Below are positions 4,865-31,478 of a stretch of DNA of 64,000 nt, piece by piece (within the stretch, counting starts at the first letter, position 1; every line of letters starts with the position of its first letter). The DNA lies in contig JBFXJJ010000006.1 in the NCBI GenBank assembly GCA_050175015.1, positions 85,716 to 149,715 of the forward strand. The letters run 5' to 3'. Below the pieces are notes generated by a model. It saw only the letters and a program-made list of their open reading frames with translations. It was not told the origin of the DNA and made no database searches. This DNA comes from Alphaproteobacteria bacterium. GTDB taxonomy: Bacteria; Pseudomonadota; Alphaproteobacteria; JBFXJJ01. The position numbers were made by a program, and so were the translations under genes.

Positions 4865-5368
4865 TTATTTATTATTCTTTTTATTTAGGTCAGAGCAGGC
4901 TTTAATCACCATATCTCTAGCCTTTTCATCTAGAACTTCATTATTAAACATAAATTTGCCGTCCTTGAGCGATATTTGCCCAAGCTTAAAATCTTTTGCT
5001 TCAACCCCTTTTGCTTCTATATTCTGCCAAGCAATAGGATCAAATGAAAAGGATATTTCACTTTGCCCCGCAAAAATACTTTCTCTCTGCCCGCTGTCTG
5101 CGGAAACAACGTTCCTGCCATAGACATCAATATTAGGAACATAGTCAGCGCTGGCGGGTTTAACTTTAGAATCAACATCTTTTTCAAATTCTGACTTTAA
5201 TTCTGCCATAAACTTTTTGCAATCATCTTCATTCACAACCAGAACAGTTTTTTCTAAAACCGCCTGCTTCCCATCTTCTATCATCTTTGATATAGAGCTG
5301 TCCTGAGCTAAAACTATTTGACTATTAGTAAGGATTATTACGGAAAGTAATAAACACCACAATTTCAT
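4865..5368 (-). CDS. Exported hypothetical protein
   Basis: Signal-peptide-like N-terminus ([21 protein letters not shown]); tightly packed between rnj and proS. Confidence 0.7.
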
Positions 5369-5372
5369 AACA

Positions 5373-7028
5373 TCAAATCCTTATAACGTGAACATTAATT
5401 AACGGTTTTTTTCCGCAAATAGCCGTAAAAGAATGCCTTACTGCCAGCCTTAAAGTTTCTGATACTTTGCCATCATCGAGCTTGTCTTCTTTTAGCATTT
5501 TAGCTAAAGATTTTTGGGCATCTCCTATTATTTTCTGTAAAATATCGGGACTTTCAATATCCTCCAGTAAATCTGGAGCTGAAATTTGGATATTGCCTTT
5601 AACGTTGCCTTTTTTATCAATGGCAACAGATACTACAGCCGAAGAATTCCACATAATTTTGCGCCGCATCTTGATAAGATTAGAATCTAAAGAAACCAAA
5701 CGATTGCCATCTAAAACTAAAATCCCGACATCAAACTCGTCAATCACGCTGGCATCATCGTCTTCAAATTTGATAACCTGACCATTGTTAACCCTTAAAG
5801 CTTTATCAACACCAAGACTTAAGGCAAGTTTTTCATGTTCAATTAAATGTATGGGCTCACCATGTATTGGAATTGCGATTTTAGGTTTTAGAAAGCCATA
5901 CATTTTCCTTATTTCTTCTTTGGGAGGATGTCCTGAAACGTGAACAAGCTCATCTTTGCCTGTGATAATTTCTATTTTCTTTTCTGCTAAAATATTTTGG
6001 AGTTTCAAAATAGATTTTTCATTGCCAGGAATAACCCTTGAAGAGAAAATTACGACATCACCTTCGTCGAGATAAATATGCTTATGATTATCTGACGCTA
6101 TCCTTAACAAAGCCGAACCCGTTTCACCCTGACTGCCTGTACAGATATATAAAATTTCATTCTCAGGCAAAAAACCTGCTTCGCTTTCCGTTAAAAAATT
6201 AACCCCGTCTAAATAACCAACAGCTTTAGCGGCATCTTCAACTTTCCATAAAGACCGCCCAACCAGACAAACTTGGCGTCCGTTGGCTTTAGCTGCCCAA
6301 GCTATGCTCTCTATTCGAGCAACGTTTGAAGAGAAACACGCAACAGCTATTCTCTTTTTAAATTTTGAAAAAAGTGTAACTAGGCTGTTTCTTACTTCTG
6401 ATTCTGATTTTGATTTGCCCTCAACTAAAACATTGGTAGAATCGCAAACAAAAGCTAAAACGCCTTCTTTGCCTACAGATTTAAGCGTTTTATAATCACT
6501 CTCTTCCCCAATCAAAGGATCTGTATCAAATTTCCAATCACCGCTATGAACAATATTGCCGTAAGGCGTTTTGATAAACAACGCATTTGCCTCTGGAATA
6601 GAATGCGTTACAGAAATAAACCTTATTTCAAAAGGTCCTAAATTGATGGTACTGTTTAACGGCAGAACATCAACATCTACTCTTCCTAAAAGCCCCGTTT
6701 CGTCAAGTCTTGGTTCCAGCATTTCGGCGGCAAACGGTGTTGCATAAACCGGAAATTTTATCTTTGACCATAAATGAGCAATAGCTCCAATATGATCTTC
6801 ATGAGCATGGGTAACAACTACACCTAAAAAATCTTTTCTGCGTTCTTCAATAAAAGTAGGATCGACCATCATAATATCTATGCCAGGAAAATCATCTCCC
6901 GCAAAGCCTATCCCCATATCAACGGCTATCCATTTATTGTCACAGCCGTATAGATATAAGTTCATACCAATTTCGCCAACTCCACCCAAGGGAATAAAAT
7001 AAAGTCCTTTATCGTATTTTTTATCCAT
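5373..7028 (-). CDS. rnj: Ribonuclease J
   Basis: PLGGVGEIGMN, THAHEDHIGA, HSGDWK, TGSQGE, HVSGH, PIHGE (MBL/beta-CASP). Confidence 0.96.
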   Translation of the reverse strand: MDKKYDKGLYFIPLGGVGEIGMNLYLYGCDNKWIAVDMGIGFAGDDFPGIDIMMVDPTFIEERRKDFLGVVVTHAHEDHIGAIAHLWSKIKFPVYATPFAAEMLEPRLDETGLLGRVDVDVLPLNSTINLGPFEIRFISVTHSIPEANALFIKTPYGNIVHSGDWKFDTDPLIGEESDYKTLKSVGKEGVLAFVCDSTNVLVEGKSKSESEVRNSLVTLFSKFKKRIAVACFSSNVARIESIAWAAKANGRQVCLVGRSLWKVEDAAKAVGYLDGVNFLTESEAGFLPENEILYICTGSQGETGSALLRIASDNHKHIYLDEGDVVIFSSRVIPGNEKSILKLQNILAEKKIEIITGKDELVHVSGHPPKEEIRKMYGFLKPKIAIPIHGEPIHLIEHEKLALSLGVDKALRVNNGQVIKFEDDDASVIDEFDVGILVLDGNRLVSLDSNLIKMRRKIMWNSSAVVSVAIDKKGNVKGNIQISAPDLLEDIESPDILQKIIGDAQKSLAKMLKEDKLDDGKVSETLRLAVRHSFTAICGKKPLINVHVIRI

Positions 7029-7839: not shown

Positions 7840-9249
7840 CTAATTGGGCAATAAAAATGGATACGCACAAACAAGCAGCATTACAAAAAAACTACAAATC
7901 ATAACAATACTATTATATAACCCTATATTATCAAATTTTTCATCTGTTTTTTTAAAATAAACAACATCTATAATTCTGATAAAGCTTAGCAGCATTAAAA
8001 CAAGGGAAATAACTACACATACAATTAGCCAGTATATTTTGGTTTTCAATAATATCATTAGCAGATGAAAAATACCGTAAAAGCCAGCTAAAGCTGGAAC
8101 GCCCGATAAAGACATCATAAAACAAACAAGGACAATAGCCCCAAACGGATGAGAAGAAGCAAAACCTTTAACATCTGCAATATTTTCAATTAGATTTCCA
8201 TTTTTTCTTAAGGATAAAACAATTGAGAAAATACCAACGATGCTAATACTGTAAGATGTTACAAGAAATACTACAGCAGACAAATCATTTTCTTTGATGC
8301 CGATGAATGATGCCCATATATAACCACTATAAACCATAGAACAATATGCCATCATTCTTTTTATGTTTGTTTGAGAAATCATAGCTATGGAACCTAGAAG
8401 CATTGACGCCGCAGCAAAAAACATTAATACAGGCATAAGCTGCGGCCATAAAGGCAAAAAGACATCTTTGATTAAACGAAGCAACACGACAAAATAGGCG
8501 ATCTTCGGTGTTGACAATAAAAATGATGTTACTGGTGTTGGAGCGCCTTCCGCAATATTAATACTGCCAAAGTTGAACATCGCCATATCACATTTAAATA
8601 ATAAACTGGCAATAACCATAAAAAAACCAGCCATAAGCAAGGCATTGTTTCCGTTCTTTGAAACATACTCCGATACGATTTTAAACCCCATACCACCTGT
8701 TGTTCCATAAATAAAAGAAACACCGTACAAATAAAATATTGCAACCACTAAACCTATGGCTAAAAATCTTGTTCCCATAATTGTTGAACGAGTTGCCCTT
8801 CTTTTAAAGGCAACCATCAAATACATCGGAAGCATAGAAAGCTCTAACCCCAAATAAAGGGTTATAAATCCTTTTGCAGAGATTGCTATCATCATTCCAG
8901 CTATCGAGAAAATTAAGAAAAAAGGATATTCATAACGCTTAAATTTTTTCAAAATAAGCCATTCATTGGCTAAGAAAATATTAGCCAAACCACAAAATAG
9001 AATTAATATCTTAAAATAAAGTGTTAGCTTATCATTAACTAAAAATGCCTCTAAATTATAATTAGACATATTGAAAAGAGAGAATGTTAGAAATAAAGCA
9101 CCCAATATAATGACTATTGATGATTTTAGAGCCGTATGATGAGAAATTCCGTGCCTAAATGCCCCCAAAACCAACATCACTACAGGAGCCATCAACAACA
9201 AAATTTCAGTTGTTACAAAACCAAATATATTATGAATTAAACTTATCAT
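7840..9249 (-). CDS. nuoN: Complex I subunit N homolog (divergent)
   Basis: LYLGLELSML, FK...AEGAPTPVTSFL..PK, QTNIKRMMAY, SLSGVPALAGF; last gene of the nuo order. Confidence 0.88.
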   Translation of the reverse strand: MISLIHNIFGFVTTEILLLMAPVVMLVLGAFRHGISHHTALKSSIVIILGALFLTFSLFNMSNYNLEAFLVNDKLTLYFKILILFCGLANIFLANEWLILKKFKRYEYPFFLIFSIAGMMIAISAKGFITLYLGLELSMLPMYLMVAFKRRATRSTIMGTRFLAIGLVVAIFYLYGVSFIYGTTGGMGFKIVSEYVSKNGNNALLMAGFFMVIASLLFKCDMAMFNFGSINIAEGAPTPVTSFLLSTPKIAYFVVLLRLIKDVFLPLWPQLMPVLMFFAAASMLLGSIAMISQTNIKRMMAYCSMVYSGYIWASFIGIKENDLSAVVFLVTSYSISIVGIFSIVLSLRKNGNLIENIADVKGFASSHPFGAIVLVCFMMSLSGVPALAGFYGIFHLLMILLKTKIYWLIVCVVISLVLMLLSFIRIIDVVYFKKTDEKFDNIGLYNSIVMICSFFVMLLVCAYPFLLPN

Positions 9250-9254
9250 AAGCT

Positions 9255-10628
9255 TTACCCTAACTCCGCAATAACTTGATTGGCAAAACTAAAAATTACA
9301 GCAAAAATTTTAGTTTGAAAAACAGCAAGAATAATGGTTGCTGCAATTAATGATAAAAAAGTTAGATAGTCTTTTTTATATCCTATTTTGCTATTAGCAA
9401 TATTGCGATTTTTTGCAAGCACGCTGATTGACGAGAAGAAAATAGCAACAACCGCAATTATCATAAAAACAATATCTTTCTTCATTAGCTCTGAAATCAT
9501 TATAATAAAACCAGAGAATACCGCAAAAGGAGGAAAAACAATAATTACAGGCAAAATTAAAAATTTTAAAACATCTAATATGCTTTTTTCATTATCCAAG
9601 ATTTCCTCAAATTCAAATTGCAGCATCATCAAGGGAAAACAAAAAGCAATAAAGATAAAAATTACCGATGCCATCAAAAGTGCATCAAATGAAAACAATC
9701 CGATTGTAACTATTCCCAAATAAATTCCAAAAAGATAGCTTAAAAATCTAAACGTATTCCGCTCTAAAACAACACATATAGAGCAATATACCGTAGTAAT
9801 AGAAGCCATAATTACTATAATATTGCCATATTCAACACAAACTTTAGGCAACAGCGGCATCACAAAGTGCAAAACCACATAAACAAAGCTCATAATTTGA
9901 CAAGTAAGGAAAAATGATGCCACAGGAGCCTCTAGTTTCCTTAAAAAACCAGCCAGCCAAAAATGATTAGGAACAAAGCCTAGTCTCAAAAATAGCGAAG
10001 CTGCTATTAAAATAAACGTCAGCCTATTTATGTTACAATCTCCTGTTTCCTTATTAAAAAGGTAGCAGACAACCGCCGTTAAAAATAAAAAAGAAGATAA
10101 CAATAAATTAAGAACAGGCCACTTTTCTTTGGTGTTGTCCTCTTCTTCCATATTTATTCGACTTATAAAAATGAAAGGAATTGGAAGTATGAAGAAAAAC
10201 ACATTAAAAAGCATAATATTCAAAGATGAAAACATACCGTTACCAATGGCTGTGGCCAAAAGTATACTAACAATATATTCTTTGTGTTTTTCTTTATTCT
10301 TATCTCTTAAGGAAAAAACACAAAGCATACTCAAAAATGAGTTAATCATAATAAATATTAAAGATACAGCTTCAACGCCAACAGCGTGTTCTATTTTAAA
10401 TTCATTATTAAAAATATCTCTTTTTTCTAATAATTGAAACCCAAGCTTGCTAAAGTCATAACGAAGCACCAAAGATGCGGCAAGAATAAAAGTTGATATT
10501 ACAGTTAATAATGCAACATTGCTGGTATTTTTAGAAATCGTCAAATTTTCGTTTCTAATAAAAAAGATAAAAAATATGCCCATTAGCGGCAAAAATGTAA
10601 TTAAAGATAAAATCGGCCAATTTGTCAT
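9255..10628 (-). CDS. nuoM: Complex I subunit M homolog (highly divergent)
   Basis: Typical alphaproteobacterial NuoM start MTNWPILSLITFLPL; PxHxWL remnant (VPNHFWL) followed by EAP; lies between nuoL and nuoN. Confidence 0.8.
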   Translation of the reverse strand: MTNWPILSLITFLPLMGIFFIFFIRNENLTISKNTSNVALLTVISTFILAASLVLRYDFSKLGFQLLEKRDIFNNEFKIEHAVGVEAVSLIFIMINSFLSMLCVFSLRDKNKEKHKEYIVSILLATAIGNGMFSSLNIMLFNVFFFILPIPFIFISRINMEEEDNTKEKWPVLNLLLSSFLFLTAVVCYLFNKETGDCNINRLTFILIAASLFLRLGFVPNHFWLAGFLRKLEAPVASFFLTCQIMSFVYVVLHFVMPLLPKVCVEYGNIIVIMASITTVYCSICVVLERNTFRFLSYLFGIYLGIVTIGLFSFDALLMASVIFIFIAFCFPLMMLQFEFEEILDNEKSILDVLKFLILPVIIVFPPFAVFSGFIIMISELMKKDIVFMIIAVVAIFFSSISVLAKNRNIANSKIGYKKDYLTFLSLIAATIILAVFQTKIFAVIFSFANQVIAELG

Positions 10629-12355
10629 TTATAAAACACTACAAAACTTAAAGTTAAAATCAACGTTACGGCAAAAAACAGAGCATTAAATGTAAAATTA
10701 TTCTTTTGATAAAGTTTGGCAAATTTCTTTAAAAGCTCAAACATTTTATCAATAATTTTTTCGATTGTCCTATTCAAAATTCTGTTATTAACTTTGTTTT
10801 TTAAGGCTATACCAAAACGAAACATAGGGAAAGCAACCACTTTAAAAAAGAACATATCCGCTTTTTCAGCAAAAGAAAACCTAACTTCTTTAGAGCAGAT
10901 ATTCCGTCTGTAAATTTTTTCAGCCCAAAAAATGCCGACAGCAACTGCGATTAAACGATAACCAGAAAACATATTAAACTTGATATAGTAAGAAACGATA
11001 CTCAAAAATATAGCAGTAACAGACATTGATGATAAAATAAACAATGAACGTTCTTGAACTCTTGCAAACACAGCGTCTTCAGCTTTGGTTGTCCCCAAGC
11101 AGGAACAAATGATAATTCTTGCAACCGCAAAAGCAAAAACACCACTTGCCAAAAGCTCCCAGACATTAATCATATAATCAATTTTTACTATTTTTATGCT
11201 TAGATAAGGAACAAGCATAAAAGCTGCCCCAACCAACATCATAAAATATGTTGCTGGCAAAAGCTTTTTTGCTCCCCCCATTTTATCCAGCCTGTACTCG
11301 CTAGAAAATGCCTCTATCAAAGAACCACAAGCTAGGAAATAAAGCAGGCTTGCCGTGATTTGAAATACTGCAAAGAAAACAAAACCGTCCAAACCATTTA
11401 AAACAAAATAAGTAATCATTAAACCCATCTGTGATGAAATCAAAAAAGCGAGCGATGATGCGATATCTTTTTCAAAAACAGCAAATATTGGCGATAAAAA
11501 TACAGTTGCTACCCCAAGAATCATAGCTATTTCAACAATTTTAGGATTAAACAACAAAACATCAGAAAGCCTTGTCATAACAATCATAAAACATAATGGA
11601 ACGGTAATTGTTGCCGTGACAATAAAACTTGGGAAATGAGCTCTTGATGTTTTTATAAAGACCAAATTTCCAATAATAAAACCGCCTTTTACCCATACAA
11701 ACAGCCAAAGCAAGCTCGAAACAATGTTAATGAGTTCCTTTTTATTCTCAAAATTATTATCTTGAACAAAACCATCATTGCCAAAAGTTGAAAGCCAAAT
11801 GGCAAAAGCTACAAATATCAAGAAACTGCCAATGGTCTCAAACACCATAAAGCTCAAAAGGCTATCTTTGGATTCATCTTGCCTGCGACCGTTGACAATT
11901 AATATCCCTGCAAACAAAAGAGCCAAATCCATACCTAAAATTAATTGAAAAAAACCTGTGGCTAAAATAGCTATTTTTAAGAAAAATATCTGTGAACTGA
12001 GAATAGAAAAAATTGCATTTTTGCTTGTTCCAACGATAGAGAAAGAATAACAAAAAACAAAAACACAAAAATAGATTATTGCAAGAATTAAAAGATACGT
12101 TACTGAGGCTTTATCAACAATGAAGCCGTAAGTTAAATAAAAATTTTCCTTAAAAAGCAGCTGAAAAACCGCGGTCTGTAAATTTCCATCTGCTCCAATA
12201 AAAACTAAAAAGCTAAAAAAAACATCAACAAAAGCTAAAAGAGGAAAAACTAACTCTGATGCCTTTTTTTTGTTAAACTTTTCCAAAACTATACTAGCGA
12301 AAACGGCTAAAAAATTAACCGATAAAACACTGTAAAAAGAAAAAAGTGTCACCAT
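10625..12355 (-). CDS. nuoL: Complex I subunit L homolog (highly divergent)
   Basis: Multi-TM protein with DIxxxLAF..SSQMGLM, FLACGSLIEAF, MGGAKKLLPATY; follows nuoK. Confidence 0.8.
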   Translation of the reverse strand: MVTLFSFYSVLSVNFLAVFASIVLEKFNKKKASELVFPLLAFVDVFFSFLVFIGADGNLQTAVFQLLFKENFYLTYGFIVDKASVTYLLILAIIYFCVFVFCYSFSIVGTSKNAIFSILSSQIFFLKIAILATGFFQLILGMDLALLFAGILIVNGRRQDESKDSLLSFMVFETIGSFLIFVAFAIWLSTFGNDGFVQDNNFENKKELINIVSSLLWLFVWVKGGFIIGNLVFIKTSRAHFPSFIVTATITVPLCFMIVMTRLSDVLLFNPKIVEIAMILGVATVFLSPIFAVFEKDIASSLAFLISSQMGLMITYFVLNGLDGFVFFAVFQITASLLYFLACGSLIEAFSSEYRLDKMGGAKKLLPATYFMMLVGAAFMLVPYLSIKIVKIDYMINVWELLASGVFAFAVARIIICSCLGTTKAEDAVFARVQERSLFILSSMSVTAIFLSIVSYYIKFNMFSGYRLIAVAVGIFWAEKIYRRNICSKEVRFSFAEKADMFFFKVVAFPMFRFGIALKNKVNNRILNRTIEKIIDKMFELLKKFAKLYQKNNFTFNALFFAVTLILTLSFVVFYK

Positions 12356-12646
12356 TTAAACAGCCTCCTCTCCGTCGGTTCTGTGCTTACGGAAACAAAC
12401 AAGCATAATAGCAAGAGAAACCGCTATTTTAGCCGCACCAACAGCAAGAATAAGCATATAAAAAACTTCTCCCATAATATCGCCGTGATACTTTGCAAAA
12501 GCCATAAAATTAATCGCTATACCTGCCTGCATAACAAAGAAAGCGATTATAATCCGAGCAATTGAACCTTTACTAGTAACGGCTCCATAAAAACCGATTA
12601 CAAAGACCACGAAAGCAAGCAGAAGAAAATGATAAATTGTAATCAT
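12356..12646 (-). CDS. nuoK: Complex I subunit K homolog (divergent)
   Basis: 96 aa, 3 TM; HFL..A...F.IG..G, INF.AF..Y.GD..G.VF, LAI.LV.FR. Confidence 0.85.
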   Translation of the reverse strand: MITIYHFLLLAFVVFVIGFYGAVTSKGSIARIIIAFFVMQAGIAINFMAFAKYHGDIMGEVFYMLILAVGAAKIAVSLAIMLVCFRKHRTDGEEAV

Positions 12647-13236
12647 ATTTTGGCTCCCTCTTTTTCTGGTGCAAGTTTAACTAGCTCTAAATCTTCATCT
12701 TTATGGATTTTTGATTTTTTAATTTTTTCCTGTTCTTTGCCTTCTATACCATAAACAAGCATTATAGCCCCCGAAGCTCCACAGAAAAGAATGACACCTG
12801 AAATTTGAAATAGGAAATATCTGCTGTAAAAGAGGTGACGTCCAAGTTCTTTAAATGAAAAAATATCATTATTTACTGCTATTTCTTTTACATTACTTAC
12901 CCCAAAAAATGCCGCAACAACGTTAATTAGAAATACTAGAAATAAAGAGAACATAAAAAAAGCAAATAAATTTTTAATGTTTTTGGAATCATACGAATTA
13001 TTTTCTTCAATCATAATGGCAAAAACAGTAACCACGCATATTGAAGATAAATCTATCAGCCCTAAAGACAACGCAACAAACTCGAAACCAAGAGCAATCA
13101 AAATTCCTGATAAAGTACAAATAAAAGGCACCAAAAACAATAAACCGCTTATTTTATTTTTGGAACTAACCGCAAGTATTGCAAAAAATATTAGCAATAC
13201 TGCGAAAAAATAAAATATGGTATCACTTAAAATCAT
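12643..13236 (-). CDS. nuoJ: Complex I subunit J homolog (divergent)
   Basis: FYFFA start, LGxEFVA, LG..LF...Y.FLFQISGVIL....GAI; overlaps the nuoK start. Confidence 0.82.
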   Translation of the reverse strand: MILSDTIFYFFAVLLIFFAILAVSSKNKISGLLFLVPFICTLSGILIALGFEFVALSLGLIDLSSICVVTVFAIMIEENNSYDSKNIKNLFAFFMFSLFLVFLINVVAAFFGVSNVKEIAVNNDIFSFKELGRHLFYSRYFLFQISGVILFCGASGAIMLVYGIEGKEQEKIKKSKIHKDEDLELVKLAPEKEGAKI

Positions 13237-13244
13237 AATATAAA

Positions 13245-14126
13245 TTATCCATTAAAAACCACATAACCTGCGGTAAAAAAGCTCCAAAAAACGTTTATTG
13301 GAAAAATAAATTTCCACAAAAAACCCAAAAGTTGATCTTCTCTAAATCTTGGGGTCGTATATTTAATAAACATCATAAGAACTAAACATAAGGCTATTTT
13401 AAGAACAAACCAGACAAACTGAGGAATTTTTAACAGCCAAAGAGCGCCACCTATCGGCAGCCAGCCACCTAAAAACATAACCGTAACAAAAGCTGCAACC
13501 GCAAGCATTGAGAGAATGTCGCCCAAATCAAACAACATTAAAGATAGTCCAGAATATTCACTGCGGTACCCTCCTGTAATCTCGGTTGTACCATCAGAAA
13601 AATTGAGAGGTTTCAACATCATAAAAGCAATCATAGAGAAAACAAAACCTATGAAAGTAAGAATATGCGGAAAAACAAACCACATATCTCTCTGGGCATC
13701 AACAATGTCAGCAAATTTCAAAGAATGAGACGAAATAACAACAGGAATAACACTAGAAAATGCTACAAGCCTAGAGTTTATAATCTGCCTAGCTGCTCGG
13801 AGGCTTCCAATAACAGCATTTCTTGTATTACTACCTATGCCTGCCATAATGCAGCCAAAAACATCAAGGCATAAAACCACAAATACCAAAAACAAACCGG
13901 CCTCAACATTCGCAAAAGCCGCCTTTTCACTAAAAGGAATAAGCAGAAAAACAAGCATTGCAACACAAATGTTGATTACAGGAGCAACCGCGAAAAAGAC
14001 ACTATCGGCATCTTTAGGTAAACTGTATTTTTTAGTATGTACTTTAAAAATTGATAAAAAATCTGAAGTCAAACCTTTTGCTAAATTTATGAAAAACTGA
14101 GATAAAAAACACTTCATAATAACCAC
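13245..14126 (-). CDS. nuoH: Complex I subunit H homolog (N-terminally truncated, divergent)
   Basis: AD..F..AP, AG.GSN...A.IGSLRAA.Q, GY.SEYSG, FLGGWLP, PRFREDQL...WK. Confidence 0.88.
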   Translation of the reverse strand: MVIMKCFLSQFFINLAKGLTSDFLSIFKVHTKKYSLPKDADSVFFAVAPVINICVAMLVFLLIPFSEKAAFANVEAGLFLVFVVLCLDVFGCIMAGIGSNTRNAVIGSLRAARQIINSRLVAFSSVIPVVISSHSLKFADIVDAQRDMWFVFPHILTFIGFVFSMIAFMMLKPLNFSDGTTEITGGYRSEYSGLSLMLFDLGDILSMLAVAAFVTVMFLGGWLPIGGALWLLKIPQFVWFVLKIALCLVLMMFIKYTTPRFREDQLLGFLWKFIFPINVFWSFFTAGYVVFNG

Positions 14127-14131
14127 AATTC

Positions 14132-15274
14132 CTATTTATCAATATTAGCAGAAGAAACGTCTAAACTCGCAACAATCAAAGGAACATCTGAAATAAAGCT
14201 TCCCTTAAGCAGCATATTTAAGGATCCTGCATGAGCAAGGCTTGGCGTCCTGATGCTACAACGATAAGGCTTATCTGTTCCATCAGATACAATAAAAACA
14301 CCTAACTCGCCTTTAGGGCTTTCAACACAACTTAAAACCTCATCTTTATCATTAGGTTTTATATCATAACTACTTAAAATACTGCTATATTTATTATTCC
14401 TGCCTGAACTTAAAACATCAATTTCACCTTGCGGAATCTTAATAAGAGCCTGATTAATTATTGCCATTGATTGTTTTATCTCTTCAAATCTTACAAGACA
14501 TCTAGCATAGCAATCTCCAGCCTCACACACTGGAATTTCAAAGTCAAAATCAGCATATACACCATAAGATGTTTTTCTTCTCAAGTCCCACACACAGCCT
14601 GAAGCTCTAAGACAAGGACCAGAAAAACCTAAAGACATCGCTTGATCAAAATCAACAAACCCGACATCTTTTGTCCTGACCTTAAAACCATAATTATTGG
14701 TTACAACCTTATCAACTTCTTCAAGAAAACAAGATAATTCATTGTTTAAAAATGATTTTATTCCAAAAACAAAATCATCAGACAAATCAAATCTAACTCC
14801 GCCCAAACAAAAGAGACCTTCTTGAATTCTAACATCTAGCGTTTTTGTATAAATTTCAACAAGTTGCCGTTTTAACTTAACCGATACACTTAAGATATTG
14901 TCCATACCAACTGTGTTGCAAATATTTCCAATATTAATAATATGATTGATAATTCGAGCAATTTCAGCGTGAACAGTTCTTATATAAGATGCCCTTTTGC
15001 TAACCTCGATATTAGCCAGATATTCACAAGCTAAAACAAATGGATATTCAGAAGAAAAAGGAACGCTATTATCAATACGGCTCATATAGGGAATAATATT
15101 GGCATATTTTTTACTTTCAAAGCTCTTCTCTAAGCCTTTATGATAATATCCAACATAAGTCTCGGCATCACTTATAGCCTCACCCTCAACGTGAAGACGG
15201 AACTTTATCCCGCAAGCAAGATAATTCTCAACCCCTATCTCAAATGTATCAGAAACAGCTTTATTATGAACCAT
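14132..15274 (-). CDS. nuoD: Complex I subunit D homolog (divergent; quinone-site residues lost)
   Basis: HKGLEK, GFSGPCLRASG..WDLRR, GDCYARCLVR.EE, VESPKGELGV, DGTDKPYRC.IR; no NiFe CxxC motifs. Confidence 0.92.
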   Translation of the reverse strand: MVHNKAVSDTFEIGVENYLACGIKFRLHVEGEAISDAETYVGYYHKGLEKSFESKKYANIIPYMSRIDNSVPFSSEYPFVLACEYLANIEVSKRASYIRTVHAEIARIINHIINIGNICNTVGMDNILSVSVKLKRQLVEIYTKTLDVRIQEGLFCLGGVRFDLSDDFVFGIKSFLNNELSCFLEEVDKVVTNNYGFKVRTKDVGFVDFDQAMSLGFSGPCLRASGCVWDLRRKTSYGVYADFDFEIPVCEAGDCYARCLVRFEEIKQSMAIINQALIKIPQGEIDVLSSGRNNKYSSILSSYDIKPNDKDEVLSCVESPKGELGVFIVSDGTDKPYRCSIRTPSLAHAGSLNMLLKGSFISDVPLIVASLDVSSANIDK

Positions 15275-15295
15275 AGCTAAACCCTAAAATATCTA

Positions 15296-15889
15296 TCAGC
15301 CCTTTATCTGGCAGCAAGCCCCAAAAGCACTACAAGTTGTTTGCTCGTTTTCTTTGGGAAAAAGCCTAATAATTTTGCGATTATCATCAAATTTTTTCTC
15401 GAACTCACCATTAAGAGGAAAATCTTTTCTTAAAGGATACCCCTTAAACCCAAAATCATTATAAAGACGCCTTAAATCTGGGTGTTCGGCAAAACATATC
15501 CCAAACATATCCCAAACCTCTTGCTCATACCAAACAGCAGAGTCATAGACTTGAGATACTGATTTTACCAGTTTCAAGCCATCGTTTGTTATTCGAACAA
15601 TAATTCTCTGATTAAGCTCGTGGCTTAAAATATGATATAAAACCTCAAAACGCTCTTCTTTTTCAGGGTAATCTATCCCCGAAATATTAGTTAAACTAGA
15701 AAATCTACAGTTAGCATCATCTCTTAGAAAAGAAAGAACTCTAGGAAGCAGCCTAGGCTGCGCATATATATTAAGAATGCCGTTTTTTATCACAACATTT
15801 TTAATGCTGTCTTGAAGACTCGCTTCAATATAAGCCGCAAGATTTTCAAGATTATTCTCTATTTGTAACCGACGATGTTTCTTTTTCAT
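15296..15889 (-). CDS. nuoC: Complex I subunit C
   Basis: DYPE..ERFEV.YH.LS, WYEQEVWDMFG, HPDLRR...D.GF.GYPLRKDFPL. Confidence 0.93.
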   Translation of the reverse strand: MKKKHRRLQIENNLENLAAYIEASLQDSIKNVVIKNGILNIYAQPRLLPRVLSFLRDDANCRFSSLTNISGIDYPEKEERFEVLYHILSHELNQRIIVRITNDGLKLVKSVSQVYDSAVWYEQEVWDMFGICFAEHPDLRRLYNDFGFKGYPLRKDFPLNGEFEKKFDDNRKIIRLFPKENEQTTCSAFGACCQIKG

Positions 15890-15898
15890 AGCTTTTTG

Positions 15899-16360
15899 CT
15901 AGTCCTTGTTAGTAATAAATTTAAAAACATCAAAAATGAGACTTGGATCTGGAGGACAACCAACCACCTGAATATCAACAGGCACAATCTTATCAACGCC
16001 TCTAACTAAGGAATAAGAAGAATAAAGCCCACCAGAACAGGCGCAAGATCCAACCGCCACAACCCATTTAGGAAACGCCATTTCGTCATAAACATGCCTT
16101 ATAATTGGAGCAACCTTATTAGTTATTTCTCCAGAAAAGACCATAACATCACAATGTTTAGGACTATTTTTAATCGAGACTTTTAAGCTTTTATCAACAC
16201 TGCTGTACGGCATAAACATATCCAGCCCACAACAGCCTTGATCCAATAGATATACCGCAAGAGAATTAGTTATAATTTTCTTATTTTCTCTTAAAACCAC
16301 AAATTTTGAATTAGATGGAACTTTACCAGCATCATTAAGACTACAGCTTATCTTTTCCAT
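15899..16360 (-). CDS. nuoB: Complex I subunit B homolog (N2 Fe-S ligands retained)
   Basis: GCCG, SP...D.MV, VYDEM..PKWV.AVGSCA.SGG, SYS.VRG.DKIVPVD..V.GCPP. Confidence 0.92.
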   Translation of the reverse strand: MEKISCSLNDAGKVPSNSKFVVLRENKKIITNSLAVYLLDQGCCGLDMFMPYSSVDKSLKVSIKNSPKHCDVMVFSGEITNKVAPIIRHVYDEMAFPKWVVAVGSCACSGGLYSSYSLVRGVDKIVPVDIQVVGCPPDPSLIFDVFKFITNKD

Positions 16361-16704
16361 TCGAAGCCTCCCTTACACAAAACGTATACCAACGTAAAGA
16401 GTTGAATAAGAAAGTAGGCTAAAATCACAAAGAATAGTTTCCAGCCAATATTAAACAATGAAACCGCCCAAAGCATAAAAAACACCATAACCGGAGAAAA
16501 TACTACAAAGACTATCGCAACAGGAAAATTTTGAAACGAGAAATAGCCATTAAAAAACGCTTTTTCTTTTCTTATTTCTGAGATTTTTTGATTATTATCG
16601 GTTATTTTTTTAGCGATAAAAAAGGAAACAAGCGGCATAATGATAATAAAAATCAATACAAAAAAAAGAAAAAATCCTAGATAGCCGTCAGGAATAGTAA
16701 CCAT
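16348..16704 (-). CDS. nuoA: Complex I subunit A homolog (divergent)
   Basis: 118 aa, 3 TM; F.VAIVFVVF.....F..WAV and C-terminal KGGFEW; first gene of the nuo order. Confidence 0.8.
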   Translation of the reverse strand: MVTIPDGYLGFFLFFVLIFIIIMPLVSFFIAKKITDNNQKISEIRKEKAFFNGYFSFQNFPVAIVFVVFSPVMVFFMLWAVSLFNIGWKLFFVILAYFLIQLFTLVYVLCKGGFEWKR

Positions 16705-16752: not shown

Positions 16753-17094
16753 TTATTTTCTCAAACCAGAAAAACTTTCTTGAGAAATTGGCAATTTTTT
16801 GACAATTCTAATTGGCACTTCATATTCAACTGCAATATCATCATTATCAAATTCAACCACCAAGACAGTATCAGCATAAAACAATGACTGTCTAGCTTCT
16901 GGGTGAATGTAATCAAGCATAATAGTAAGTCCGTTATTGCGGTACAGCAAAGCGTGTTCGCCGCCGTCATAAACGATTTTAGGCTCTTCTGGCAGCCCTT
17001 TTCTTGCTTTAATTGAGATTAACAAATCACCAGAAGAATTTTGCAATATATCATAGAGTTCTTCTTGTTCTGGTTTTACTTGTTTCTCTAACAT
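16753..17094 (-). CDS. Hypothetical protein upstream of nuoA
   Basis: 113-aa ORF with an AGGAG RBS upstream (ctcct at 17101-17105); no recognisable family. Confidence 0.7.
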   Translation of the reverse strand: MLEKQVKPEQEELYDILQNSSGDLLISIKARKGLPEEPKIVYDGGEHALLYRNNGLTIMLDYIHPEARQSLFYADTVLVVEFDNDDIAVEYEVPIRIVKKLPISQESFSGLRK

Positions 17095-28642: not shown

Positions 28643-29071
28643 ATGCCTGTACTTTGGAGAAATGACTTAAGTGTTGGCTGCAAAGATATTGATAACGACC
28701 ATAAAAATTGGCTTAATGTAGTCAATGTTGTATCAATGGGAGTTGATTCTGGAGATGTTAAGTTAGTAAAAAAAGCTATGGATGATGCTGTTGAATATTC
28801 TAGGCAGCATTTTTATCGTGAAGAAAAACTAATGAAAAACATCAGTTACCCGTATTATGAAGAACACTTTGAAATTCATTCAACTTTTATTGAAAAAATA
28901 AATGATTTTCAAACAGATATGAATATGAATATGGATTATCACCCTGAAGAAGCTATGAAAATAGGTAAAAAGTTCGCAACTTTTACTAGGAACTGGCTTT
29001 TGAGTCACATAAAAAATGAAGACAGCAAAATCAGTCCTTTCATTAATAACAAATGTGATAATCTCGATTAA
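28643..29071 (+). CDS. Bacteriohemerythrin
   Basis: W...LSVG..ID.DH, HF..EE.LM, YP...H...H, WL..HI..ED: a full di-iron ligand set. Confidence 0.92.
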   Translation: MPVLWRNDLSVGCKDIDNDHKNWLNVVNVVSMGVDSGDVKLVKKAMDDAVEYSRQHFYREEKLMKNISYPYYEEHFEIHSTFIEKINDFQTDMNMNMDYHPEEAMKIGKKFATFTRNWLLSHIKNEDSKISPFINNKCDNLD

Positions 29072-30056: not shown

Positions 30057-31478
30057 TCAACTAAGGCGTTTTTTTAGTTCTTTCGTTGAAACGCCCGTTT
30101 CCATTTCAAAAAATTCAATCTTTTCCAAGTGCTTATTTAACTTCTCATCAGGAAGCTTAGTTTGAATACGAGCAACCGTTCCTTCTGGAACTTTTGAAGC
30201 ATCTATCGTTTTAAAAAGATTTTTATCAATTTTTATCAAAGAGTTTTTATTGGGAGAAACCATCTCACATTCTTTGTCATTAACGGCATCGATAAGTTTA
30301 TCCAAAACTACTTGATGATTGCCCATACCATTGGGCATAACAAACTCAATAACATCGTTTGGTCTTAGTGTATTTTTAACCTCAAACACAATTTGACTAT
30401 CGCTGTTTTCTTTAATCATTCCCGCAAACAGCCACTCACCTAAAGGTGATGTTACGTTATAATCGTGAGCCAGATGCGTTGGTATTCCTCGATGGAACCC
30501 TAAACTGTAACCTCTGGTTTGAACGGTATAAAGCTCTTTCATAAAAGGAATAGGCGAAAAGTCTTCGGGATTATTAAAATAGCTGTCTATTGCTAAGCGA
30601 TAAGCTTTTGCGGTAACCGCTACATAATAAGCACTCTTATTTCTTCCTTCTATTTTCAAGGAATCAAGATTAGCCGATAAAACCTCATCTAAGACAGGAA
30701 GCAGACATAAATCTTTAGCGTTAAAAAGAAAACTGCCATTTTCGTTTTCTTCAACTTCCAAAAACTCTCCTGGTCTGAATTCCTCTTCTACTAAGAAATT
30801 AAATAAATCCCTATTCTTATCATTTATTGGTATTTCTTCAATACTGCCATCTTTAAGTTTTAAATGCAGCTTATAATTCCAGCGGCAGGAATGAGAACAT
30901 ATTCCTTTATTAGCGGAACGATTGGTTAAATAAGATGATATTAAACATCTTCCCGAATGGCTCATACACATTGCGCCGTGAACAAACGCCTCCAACCTAA
31001 CATCAGGGCATTTTTCTCTTATGGTTTTAATTTCATTAATCGAAAGCTCTCGGGCAAGAATACAAAGACTTGCGCCTCTTTTCTGCCACGATTTAACGGT
31101 TAAATATGATGCTATATTAGCCTGTGTCGAAATATGCTTAGGAACATTAGGAGCAAGATCCATTGCCAAATCAAAAACCCCGTTATCCGAAATGATAAAG
31201 CCGTCAGGATTAAGAGTAGCTAACTTAGGAATAGCAACTGCCAGCTTTTCAATATCATCATTGCGGGAAACAACGTTTAAGTTAAGATAAACTTTTTTCC
31301 CTAAACTATGAGCAAATTTTATTCCTTCACTAAGTTCATCAGCTTCAAATTTAGCCTGAGAACGCAAAGAAAAAGCGGAAGAACCTGCATAGATAGCATC
31401 TGCGCCATATAAAAATGCGGTCTTCATTTTTAAATAATCGCCAGCTGGCAACAATAATTCTGGTTTTTTTATCTTCAT
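30057..31478 (-). CDS. U32-family protein, probably tRNA hydroxylase TrhP (YegQ-like)
   Basis: PELLLPAG, YGADAIY, HISTQAN, HGAMCMSHSGRCLIS, C.HSCRW.Y, SLKIEGR.KS.YY. Confidence 0.85.
   Translation of the reverse strand: MKIKKPELLLPAGDYLKMKTAFLYGADAIYAGSSAFSLRSQAKFEADELSEGIKFAHSLGKKVYLNLNVVSRNDDIEKLAVAIPKLATLNPDGFIISDNGVFDLAMDLAPNVPKHISTQANIASYLTVKSWQKRGASLCILARELSINEIKTIREKCPDVRLEAFVHGAMCMSHSGRCLISSYLTNRSANKGICSHSCRWNYKLHLKLKDGSIEEIPINDKNRDLFNFLVEEEFRPGEFLEVEENENGSFLFNAKDLCLLPVLDEVLSANLDSLKIEGRNKSAYYVAVTAKAYRLAIDSYFNNPEDFSPIPFMKELYTVQTRGYSLGFHRGIPTHLAHDYNVTSPLGEWLFAGMIKENSDSQIVFEVKNTLRPNDVIEFVMPNGMGNHQVVLDKLIDAVNDKECEMVSPNKNSLIKIDKNLFKTIDASKVPEGTVARIQTKLPDEKLNKHLEKIEFFEMETGVSTKELKKRLS

Follow-up and report, generated by a model that had tools for sequence, protein, structure and literature searches.

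The nuo operon

The 64,000-nucleotide stretch of alphaproteobacterial DNA considered here (termed the window; positions 85,716 to 149,715 of contig JBFXJJ010000006.1, assembly GCA_050175015.1) carries genes for ten of the 14 subunits of respiratory complex I. They lie on the minus strand between window positions 16704 and 7840, as ten open frames of about 2,900 codons in all, in the order nuoA-B-C-D-H-J-K-L-M-N (Table 1). The genes are closely packed. nuoA and nuoB overlap by 13 nucleotides (nt), and nuoJ/nuoK and nuoL/nuoM by 4 nt each. The spacings are 9 nt (nuoB/nuoC), 21 nt (nuoC/nuoD), 5 nt (nuoD/nuoH), 8 nt (nuoH/nuoJ), 0 nt (nuoK/nuoL) and 5 nt (nuoM/nuoN), and 3 nt separate nuoN from birA. 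Gene order, the two short gaps around nuoH and the open frames had been described in a sequence-only reading of the window, with which the coordinates and junctions agree. In an independent assembly, from run X1 (which may be the source sample), this entire stretch is found within a single contig of 31,150 bases with 0 differences.

Table 1. Location of the nuo genes and of other features named in the text (window positions, unless another contig or locus is given).
Feature	Location	Strand	Length	Remark
nuoA	16348..16704	minus	118 aa	
nuoB	15899..16360	minus	153 aa	about 190 aa in relatives
nuoC	15296..15889	minus	197 aa	
nuoD	14132..15274	minus	380 aa	
nuoH	13245..14126	minus	293 aa	against a median of 342 aa
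nuoJ	12643..13236	minus	197 aa	
nuoK	12356..12646	minus	96 aa	
nuoL	10625..12355	minus	576 aa	
nuoM	9255..10628	minus	457 aa	
nuoN	7840..9249	minus	469 aa	
Cys-rich C-terminal tail of NuoC	15296-15340			
Contigs of related organism (run X1)	8466-8799; 9910-9998; 16209-16310			
orf113	16753-17094	minus	113 aa	48 nt upstream of nuoA
167-aa open reading frame	4865-5368	minus	167 aa	between RNase J and tRNA synthetase genes
Hemerythrin-domain protein	28643-29071			
U32 peptidase-family protein	30057-31478		473 aa	
HydC, HydB, HydA	G000:C4:420-4414		163, 558, 591 aa	other contig of the genome
ApbE-RseC-RnfBCDGEA	G000:C5:36505-43027			
NuoC/NuoD-like locus L131, family f27	14744-16348 (G181:C1)		143, 379 aa	
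NuoC/NuoD-like locus L127, family f27	G026:C129			

Frames of this length are not a chance property of the nucleotide composition. In shuffled versions of the operon (n = 200) the longest stop-free run had a mean of 91 codons and never exceeded 150, as compared with up to 576 codons in the real genes, and the two off-frames of each nuo gene contain 5 to 64 stops apiece. Pfam identifies nine of the ten subunits (A, B, C, D, H, J, K and two Proton_antipo_M proteins) and gives zero matches for the nuoM product. NCBIfam models of Nuo subunits match all ten proteins, and the scores are low: every equivalog-level model falls under its cut-off (NuoD 334 against 360 bits, NuoL 51 against 556, NuoM 124.6 against 585), and only two subfamily-level models score above theirs, for NuoB (NF005012, 126.8 against 116 bits) and NuoC (TIGR01961, 132.2 against 122.45 bits).

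Absence of the input module and of NuoI

The operon was compared with 20-kb nuo regions taken from 16 of 40 genomes of the same class, all of them from outside the order, family and genus of the organism. In 15 of these 16 loci, nuoA-B-C-D is followed by about 4 kb, nuoH, about 0.5 kb, and nuoJ-K-L (with M and N where the region extends that far); the remaining region contains only nuoA-D. In the window, the 5 nt between nuoD and nuoH and the 8 nt between nuoH and nuoJ leave no space for remnants of nuoEFG or nuoI. The ferredoxin-type motif CxxCxxCxxxC is missing from all six frames between window positions 7001 and 17500.

Hidden Markov models (HMMs) of all 14 subunits, built from alphaproteobacterial reference loci (11-13 sequences for NuoE, F, G and I), were used to search open reading frames (ORFs) of at least 40 amino acids (aa) in the whole genome, an assembly of 2.53 Mb in 49 contigs that is 99.4% complete. 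The ten nuo genes are each present once. NuoI is absent from the genome by these searches: its own HMM gives at best 19.9 bits, within a 479-aa protein, and TIGR01971, with a cut-off of 113.05, does not exceed 29.4 bits, all its matches being in larger iron-sulfur (Fe-S) proteins or in an 86-aa frame. Among other alphaproteobacteria, NuoI was detected in 180 genomes out of a sample of 200.

The NuoE-, NuoF- and NuoG-like matches form one cluster, which encodes the HydC, HydB and HydA proteins of a HydABC-type [FeFe] hydrogenase. HydA displays an Fe_hyd_lg_C domain (316 bits) and the small-subunit domain, HydB is NuoF-like and HydC is NuoE-like. A role of HydABC as a substitute or displaced N-module is ruled out by the complete H-cluster domain and by the location on another contig. 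The proposal of the sequence-only reading that the operon encodes no electron-input module is thus borne out at the level of both the operon and the genome, and the clean junctions suggest that nuoEFG and nuoI were probably lost by deletion.

State of the subunits

At the amino acid level, the ten proteins are 19% (NuoL) to 41% (NuoB) identical to the references, with NuoJ at 23%, as compared with 50-71% among the references themselves (n = 13-16 per subunit). Retention of canonical invariant columns ranges from 26% (NuoL), 29% (NuoA) and 30% (NuoM), through 43-49% (NuoJ, K, H, B and D), to 58% (NuoN) and 72% (NuoC); the references, when each is left out in turn, retain a median of 97-100%. 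NuoC is the best conserved subunit, and NuoB, C and D are relatively better retained than A, L and M. The C-terminal tail of NuoC is rich in cysteine (C186, C192, C193) and aligns where three residues invariant in the 16 references are missing.

Catalytic residues were mapped to E. coli numbering by way of the K-12 operon. Residue roles follow excerpts of bioRxiv 10.1101/2021.04.09.439197 and, for some positions in NuoB, NuoL, NuoM and NuoN, general knowledge of complex I. The quinone ligands of NuoD are replaced, His224 by Cys21 and Tyr273 by Asn69; an alignment with PDB sequences agrees, and 16 of 16 references have both His and Tyr. None of five channel carboxylates that are retained in all 15 references is present (NuoA D79 is Ser70 and E81 is Val72, NuoH E157 is Arg119, NuoK E36 is Phe37 and E72 is Lys73). 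In the NuoM relay none of four residues remains, Glu144, Lys265 and Glu407 being Phe and Lys234 being Arg. NuoL retains Lys229 and has Asp for Glu144, and Asp178, His254, His334, His338, Lys342, Lys399 and Asp400 are lost. NuoN has kept three of its four relay residues (Glu133, Lys217 and Lys247), with Lys395 replaced by Ile393. The four cysteines of cluster N2 in NuoB (E. coli C63, C64, C129 and C158) are retained as C43, C44, C106 and C135.

Structural changes accompany these replacements. NuoB is shortened at the N-terminus and in the loop past the CC motif. In NuoH, the region that corresponds to the first ~58 profile positions in relatives consists of 17 residues, which is read as loss of the first helix region. 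NuoL, M and N are colinear with the NuoL/M/N models (NuoL to its C-terminus) and crude hydropathy counts point the same way; these properties indicate that the overall architecture is retained. As judged from the sequence, canonical NADH:quinone oxidoreduction and canonical proton pumping appear excluded, because modules, ligands, relay and quinone are all missing.

Metabolic setting

The absence of quinone is suggested by the rest of the genome. To our knowledge, every known quinone pathway requires a UbiA-family prenyltransferase; none was found in the 99.4% complete genome, with a control that was positive in 14 of 14 known genomes. Genome searches also gave no cytochrome bd (CydA), haem-copper oxidase (COX1), cytochrome b or molybdopterin enzyme. 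SdhA/FrdA is likewise not found in the genome, the only matches being of the Rossmann type and N-terminal. The sequence-only reading had named ubi/men genes and terminal oxidases as a point to check.

The genome contains an ApbE-RseC-RnfBCDGEA cluster and genes for the alpha and beta subunits of ATP synthase. In addition, two frames that contain Fe-S motifs, 1178 and 1196 aa long, are taken to be PFOR-like. The organism reads as a ferredoxin-centred fermenter without a quinone chain, which would rely on PFOR-like enzymes, Rnf, HydABC and ATP synthase. The HydABC and Rnf clusters jointly indicate that the metabolism of this alphaproteobacterium is anaerobic and based on ferredoxin. Elsewhere in the window are genes for a hemerythrin-domain protein and a U32 peptidase-family protein. 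Some members of these two families are tied to oxygen sensing or to oxygen-independent hydroxylation, and their presence is noteworthy in a genome without detected oxidases.

This setting raises the question of whether the complex might still be an energy-converting redox pump, similar to the 11-subunit enzymes (NDH-1, Fpo and the Campylobacter type), that takes electrons from ferredoxin or another donor and passes them to an acceptor other than quinone. The N2 cysteines and the ferredoxin-centred metabolism, with its PFOR-sized Fe-S proteins, Rnf and HydABC, would be consistent with such a pump. There are also precedents: excerpts of PMC3787301 describe fermenting Melainabacteria without quinones that carry 11-subunit complex I, and according to excerpts of PMC4758237, a GltD-like flavoprotein replaces NuoI in mbx-like operons. 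However, neither NuoI nor a substitute gene is found in or beside the operon, and orf113, which lies upstream of nuoA, encodes no cysteines. Moreover, the NuoA/H/K carboxylates and the NuoM relay are replaced, mostly by residues that are not ionisable, and this leaves no evident coupled ion path. A redox pump is accordingly considered very unlikely.

A second possibility is a secondary ion transporter or channel, comparable to Mrp, that would operate through the remaining path in NuoN with the peripheral stub as an inert cap. NuoN does retain 58% of the invariant columns and most of its relay. No PF00361 gene was found in the genome outside the operon, and hence no Mrp system, and a cell with Rnf and ATP synthase would gain from cation/proton exchange. 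Against this stand the Ile in place of NuoN Lys395 and the lost relays of NuoL and NuoM, which are homologous to the antiporter subunits of Mrp. Such a transporter would also leave the better retention of NuoB, C and D unexplained, and it is regarded as quite unlikely.

Descent and relatives

The operon has kept its ancestral surroundings: nuoN is followed by birA in 12 of the 16 reference loci, as it is here. Close homologues of NuoD and NuoJ, from other metagenomes, were found in a collection of 5.8 billion proteins. For NuoD these are P0002 and P0003, both at 56% identity, with the next match at 37%; for NuoJ they are P0122 and P0123, at 57-58% identity. In a NuoD tree the window protein, P0002 and P0003 form one group with a Shimodaira-Hasegawa-like approximate likelihood ratio test (SH-aLRT) value of 100, and this group is placed inside the alphaproteobacterial and mitochondrial group (SH-aLRT 99). 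The stem of the clade measures 2.88 changes per site and the tips 0.51-0.71; the tree program flagged the three clade rows for unusual composition, and long-branch effects on the placement are possible. The NuoD placement in the Nuo group and the ancestral position of the operon both speak against descent from the group 4 [NiFe] hydrogenase branch. The operon is thus likely to be a vertically inherited alphaproteobacterial nuo operon.

The relatives share the derived features of the window proteins. At the positions of the quinone ligands His and Tyr, P0002 has Leu and Asn and P0003 has Ser and Asp; both are therefore without quinone ligands. All three NuoD clade members share the derived motif EIG[AV]ENY, on the loop that bore the ligand His. 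In the third helix of NuoJ, a Tyr that is canonically invariant is an acidic residue in three of three clade members. All three members have in common 19 of the 62 derived residues of NuoD and 11 of the 21 of NuoJ.

Selection or decay

The simplest explanation of so divergent an operon would be pseudogene decay, in which the genes have been functionless since respiration was lost and the frames are open only because that loss was recent. The loss of nearly all catalytic residues, the lack of detected quinone synthesis genes and oxidases in the genome, and a nearest relative of NuoL that is only 25% identical among 1.84 billion cluster representatives are in line with it. So are the scattered remnants in family f27, described below, which suggest that decay reaches completion in other lineages. 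The sequence-only reading had favoured selection over decay, and several lines of evidence support it in this.

The first is the distribution of divergence along the chromosome. BirA is 34% identical to the references, which are 31% identical to one another, and RNase J 43% (42%); both figures lie far from the pattern of the nuo subunits. The acceleration appears to be specific to nuo, with normally diverged flanking genes. The second line is conservation within the clade. NuoD columns that are identical in all three members make up 60% at canonically invariant sites and 27% at variable sites (Fisher p ~1e-4), and for NuoJ the corresponding values are 62% and 23% (Fisher p ~2e-4). Constraint within the clade therefore tracks fold-critical sites, which counts against plain decay.

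The third is the persistence of open frames. The quinone-ligand losses are common to three lineages that are 56-58% identical, all with full-length frames. In simulated neutral drift to 57% identity, stop-free runs were obtained in 0 of 2000 cases for nuoD and 4 of 2000 for nuoJ, with means of 11.5 and 6.0 stops. The ten genes, several of them tightly spaced or overlapping, are also free of frameshifts.

The fourth line comes from run X1, which contains short, low-depth contigs of a second, related organism, ~80-89% identical, over parts of nuoN, nuoM and nuoB. These point to a relative in the sample of this run, another species or strain, that carries these divergent genes too. The 34 listed differences between it and the window comprise 27 synonymous and 7 nonsynonymous changes, and 25 of the 34 are at third codon positions, a pattern that would be hard to obtain without purifying selection (binomial p 2e-12). 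The ratio of nonsynonymous to synonymous differences per site (pN/pS) is ~0.07, a value that counts for less in that it comes from 63 codons, from contigs of depth 2-3.4, and from stretches of at least 80% nucleotide identity, with a resulting bias towards conserved stretches.

Taken together, these observations make it probable that the ten genes are held open under strong purifying selection, and plain decay is thought highly improbable.

A complex probably retained without the canonical function

The reading preferred here is that the operon encodes a complex I pseudo-enzyme, neither an NADH:quinone oxidoreductase nor a canonical proton pump, that is maintained by selection. There is a good probability that this is correct, and the complex probably now serves something other than respiration. 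The course of events may have been as follows. The lineage would have turned to fermentation without detectable quinone synthesis, and nuoEFG and nuoI would have been deleted cleanly. A burst of change would then have cost NuoD its quinone ligands, NuoA, H and K their channel carboxylates, NuoM its relay and NuoL most of its own.

Several points weigh against this interpretation. NuoD and NuoJ alone yielded clade homologues; NuoB gave none among 22 matches, all of which are of canonical or hydrogenase type, and the best non-self match of NuoL scores 63 bits. As to relatives with DNA context, the metagenome contigs of JGI gave one locus at 27% identity and the genome contigs of GTDB a best match at 37%. 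That relatives share the deletions is only inferred. For P0003, and likewise for P0122, the one ENA contig listed is 6,954 bases long, and the nuoD-to-nuoJ span in 15 reference loci is never below 7,187 bases; were both proteins encoded on one contig, at least part of nuoE/F/G/I would be missing there. With respect to the residues, the alignment is gapped at helix 12 of NuoL and at NuoM Lys265, and K388 lies within two residues of the expected position of NuoL Lys399.

What the pseudo-enzyme might do is a more tentative matter. One suggestion is a structural or gating device, not a pump, in which ferredoxin addresses cluster N2. The NuoB-C-D cap would still carry N2, and without NuoI, itself ferredoxin-like, the N2 side of NuoB would lie exposed, such that a soluble ferredoxin could address the cluster directly. 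The redox state of N2 might then be relayed to a full-length membrane arm without a working relay in NuoL or NuoM. The role of the arm would be conformational or structural, either that of a scaffold gated by redox state or that of a gate in which NuoN offers no more than one residual ion path. Among the specific functions this device is favoured because NuoB, C and D are better retained than A, L and M, the ligation of N2 is intact, the EIG[AV]ENY loop is invariant in the clade, and NuoI loss would expose N2. It is offered as a possibility only. Retention of all four cysteines has a chance of ~5% at the 48% retention of NuoB, the electron acceptor is not known, and a mere anchor would not require an intact NuoL and NuoM.

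A bolder version, which is unlikely, is that the operon represents a new branch of the complex I superfamily. This would be a ten-subunit machine without NuoI and independent of quinone, in which ferredoxin addresses N2 and the remodelled NuoD pocket with its EIG[AV]ENY motif reduces a non-quinone acceptor or gates the arm. If true, the branch would be a redox-gated channel or sensor derived from a former proton pump. What probability remains falls to a purely structural role or to something that has not been thought of.

As a rule, a lineage either has a working complex I or has lost it. Selection seems here to have kept ten subunits after the loss of the input module, of the Fe-S wire and quinone site, and of most of the relay, in a cell without detected genes for quinone synthesis. 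If the complex is made, it would amount to a natural dissection of complex I that shows which parts are kept for non-catalytic reasons, and a test bed for the membrane arm and the NuoBCD cap acting alone. The case bears on the dismantling and re-use of respiratory complexes in anaerobic alphaproteobacteria, and the same question applies to mitochondrion-related organelles.

Remnants in family f27

Nineteen of the 20 sampled alphaproteobacterial genomes without NuoI were examined for NuoD-like genes, and four have one. In the first, NuoD is canonical (578 bits), and NuoI may simply be unassembled. The second has two frames of 510-528 aa, which are taken to be hydrogenase large subunits. The other two, G181 and G026, belong to family f27. 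Both have an isolated pair of a NuoC-like and a NuoD-like gene beside ribosomal protein L25; the NuoD-like frame is open in G181, a complete genome of 1.3 Mb, and has one TAG in G026.

The f27 NuoD-like proteins lack the quinone His and Tyr and are 24% identical to NuoD of the window. One or two PF00361 genes are found elsewhere in these genomes (one in G181), and a NuoB-like gene only in G026. NuoI and NuoH were not found in either G181 or G026, nor was NuoB in G181. The f27 remnants are thus similar to the window operon in the loss of NuoI and of the quinone ligands, and the ten-gene operon is far more complete. Remnants of complex I persist in more than one alphaproteobacterial lineage, and the window operon is the most complete remnant found among those examined. 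The relics with only NuoC and NuoD might be a sign that such a cap is useful by itself.

Flanking genes

Downstream of nuoN are genes for BirA, RNase J, a 167-aa ORF, a class II tRNA synthetase, a permease of the MacB/FtsX type (Lol-like), an ABC ATPase and DnaE. The sequence-only reading had given this order as birA-rnj-proS-lolC-lolD-dnaE, and Pfam matches it; the synthetase is taken as ProS, the permease and ATPase are only Lol-like, and the 167-aa ORF, which has no Pfam family and no genomic paralogue, lies in between. A scan for promoters and terminators gave numbers that are not clearly higher than in shuffled sequences (57 against a mean of 46.9, standard deviation (sd) 6.3, for promoters; 11 against 8.3, sd 2.7, for terminators).

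Upstream of nuoA, orf113 has 11 paralogues dispersed in the genome (phmmer E 2.7e-26 to 3e-09). An Atlas lead to PilZN/PilZNR (0.90-0.91) is weak. As a candidate for an extra subunit of the complex, orf113 is ruled out by the zero cysteines, the lack of a Pfam family and the 11 genomic paralogues.

Comparison with known systems

No paper on a nuoABCDHJKLMN operon or on complex I without NuoI was found in full texts, supplements excluded. Literature on fermentative alphaproteobacteria with Rnf, [FeFe] hydrogenase and complex I, judged mostly from titles and the beginnings of abstracts, yielded none on such an operon. It is well established that partial nuo operons can lack NuoEFG, and these are regarded as functional (excerpts of PMC4453560).

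The closest resemblance is to the canonical 14-subunit complex I of alphaproteobacteria and mitochondria. The genes are orthologous and have the ancestral order and position, with nuoN followed by birA and rnj; NuoD is placed within the alphaproteobacterial and mitochondrial group; and lengths, hydrophobic profiles, colinearity and the N2 cysteines are retained. The window operon differs in that NuoE, F, G and I and the N-terminus of NuoH are missing, and in that the NuoD ligands, the carboxylates of NuoA, H and K, and the relays of NuoM and NuoL are replaced.

The 11-subunit enzymes keep a NuoI homologue, in the set NuoABCDHIJKLMN, and are regarded as energy-converting. Similar to the window operon, these enzymes (cyanobacterial NDH-1, Fpo, the Campylobacter/Desulfitobacterium type and that of Melainabacteria) are without NuoEFG, and they occur in anaerobes, including fermenters reported to be quinone-less (excerpts of PMC4453560 and PMC3787301; abstract of PMC11238625). 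Here, by contrast, there are ten subunits, NuoI is also gone, and coupling residues are replaced.

Ehr complexes have no Ni-Fe ligands (excerpts of PMC4758237). Together with the mbx-like complexes they resemble the window operon in a NuoD-type subunit without Ni-Fe ligands or a quinone site, and in a function that is either not known or altered. They are, however, separate and old branches of the superfamily, whereas the window operon appears to be of true alphaproteobacterial Nuo descent and has no gene that substitutes for NuoI.

The Mrp antiporter consists of MrpA-G, without homologues of NuoB, C, D and H, and relies on a Lys/Glu relay. It shares with the window operon antiporter-like subunits (PF00361), a NuoK-like subunit and the lack of a redox input. 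The two differ in that NuoB, C, D and H are present in the window operon, and in that its relay has been lost in NuoL and NuoM.

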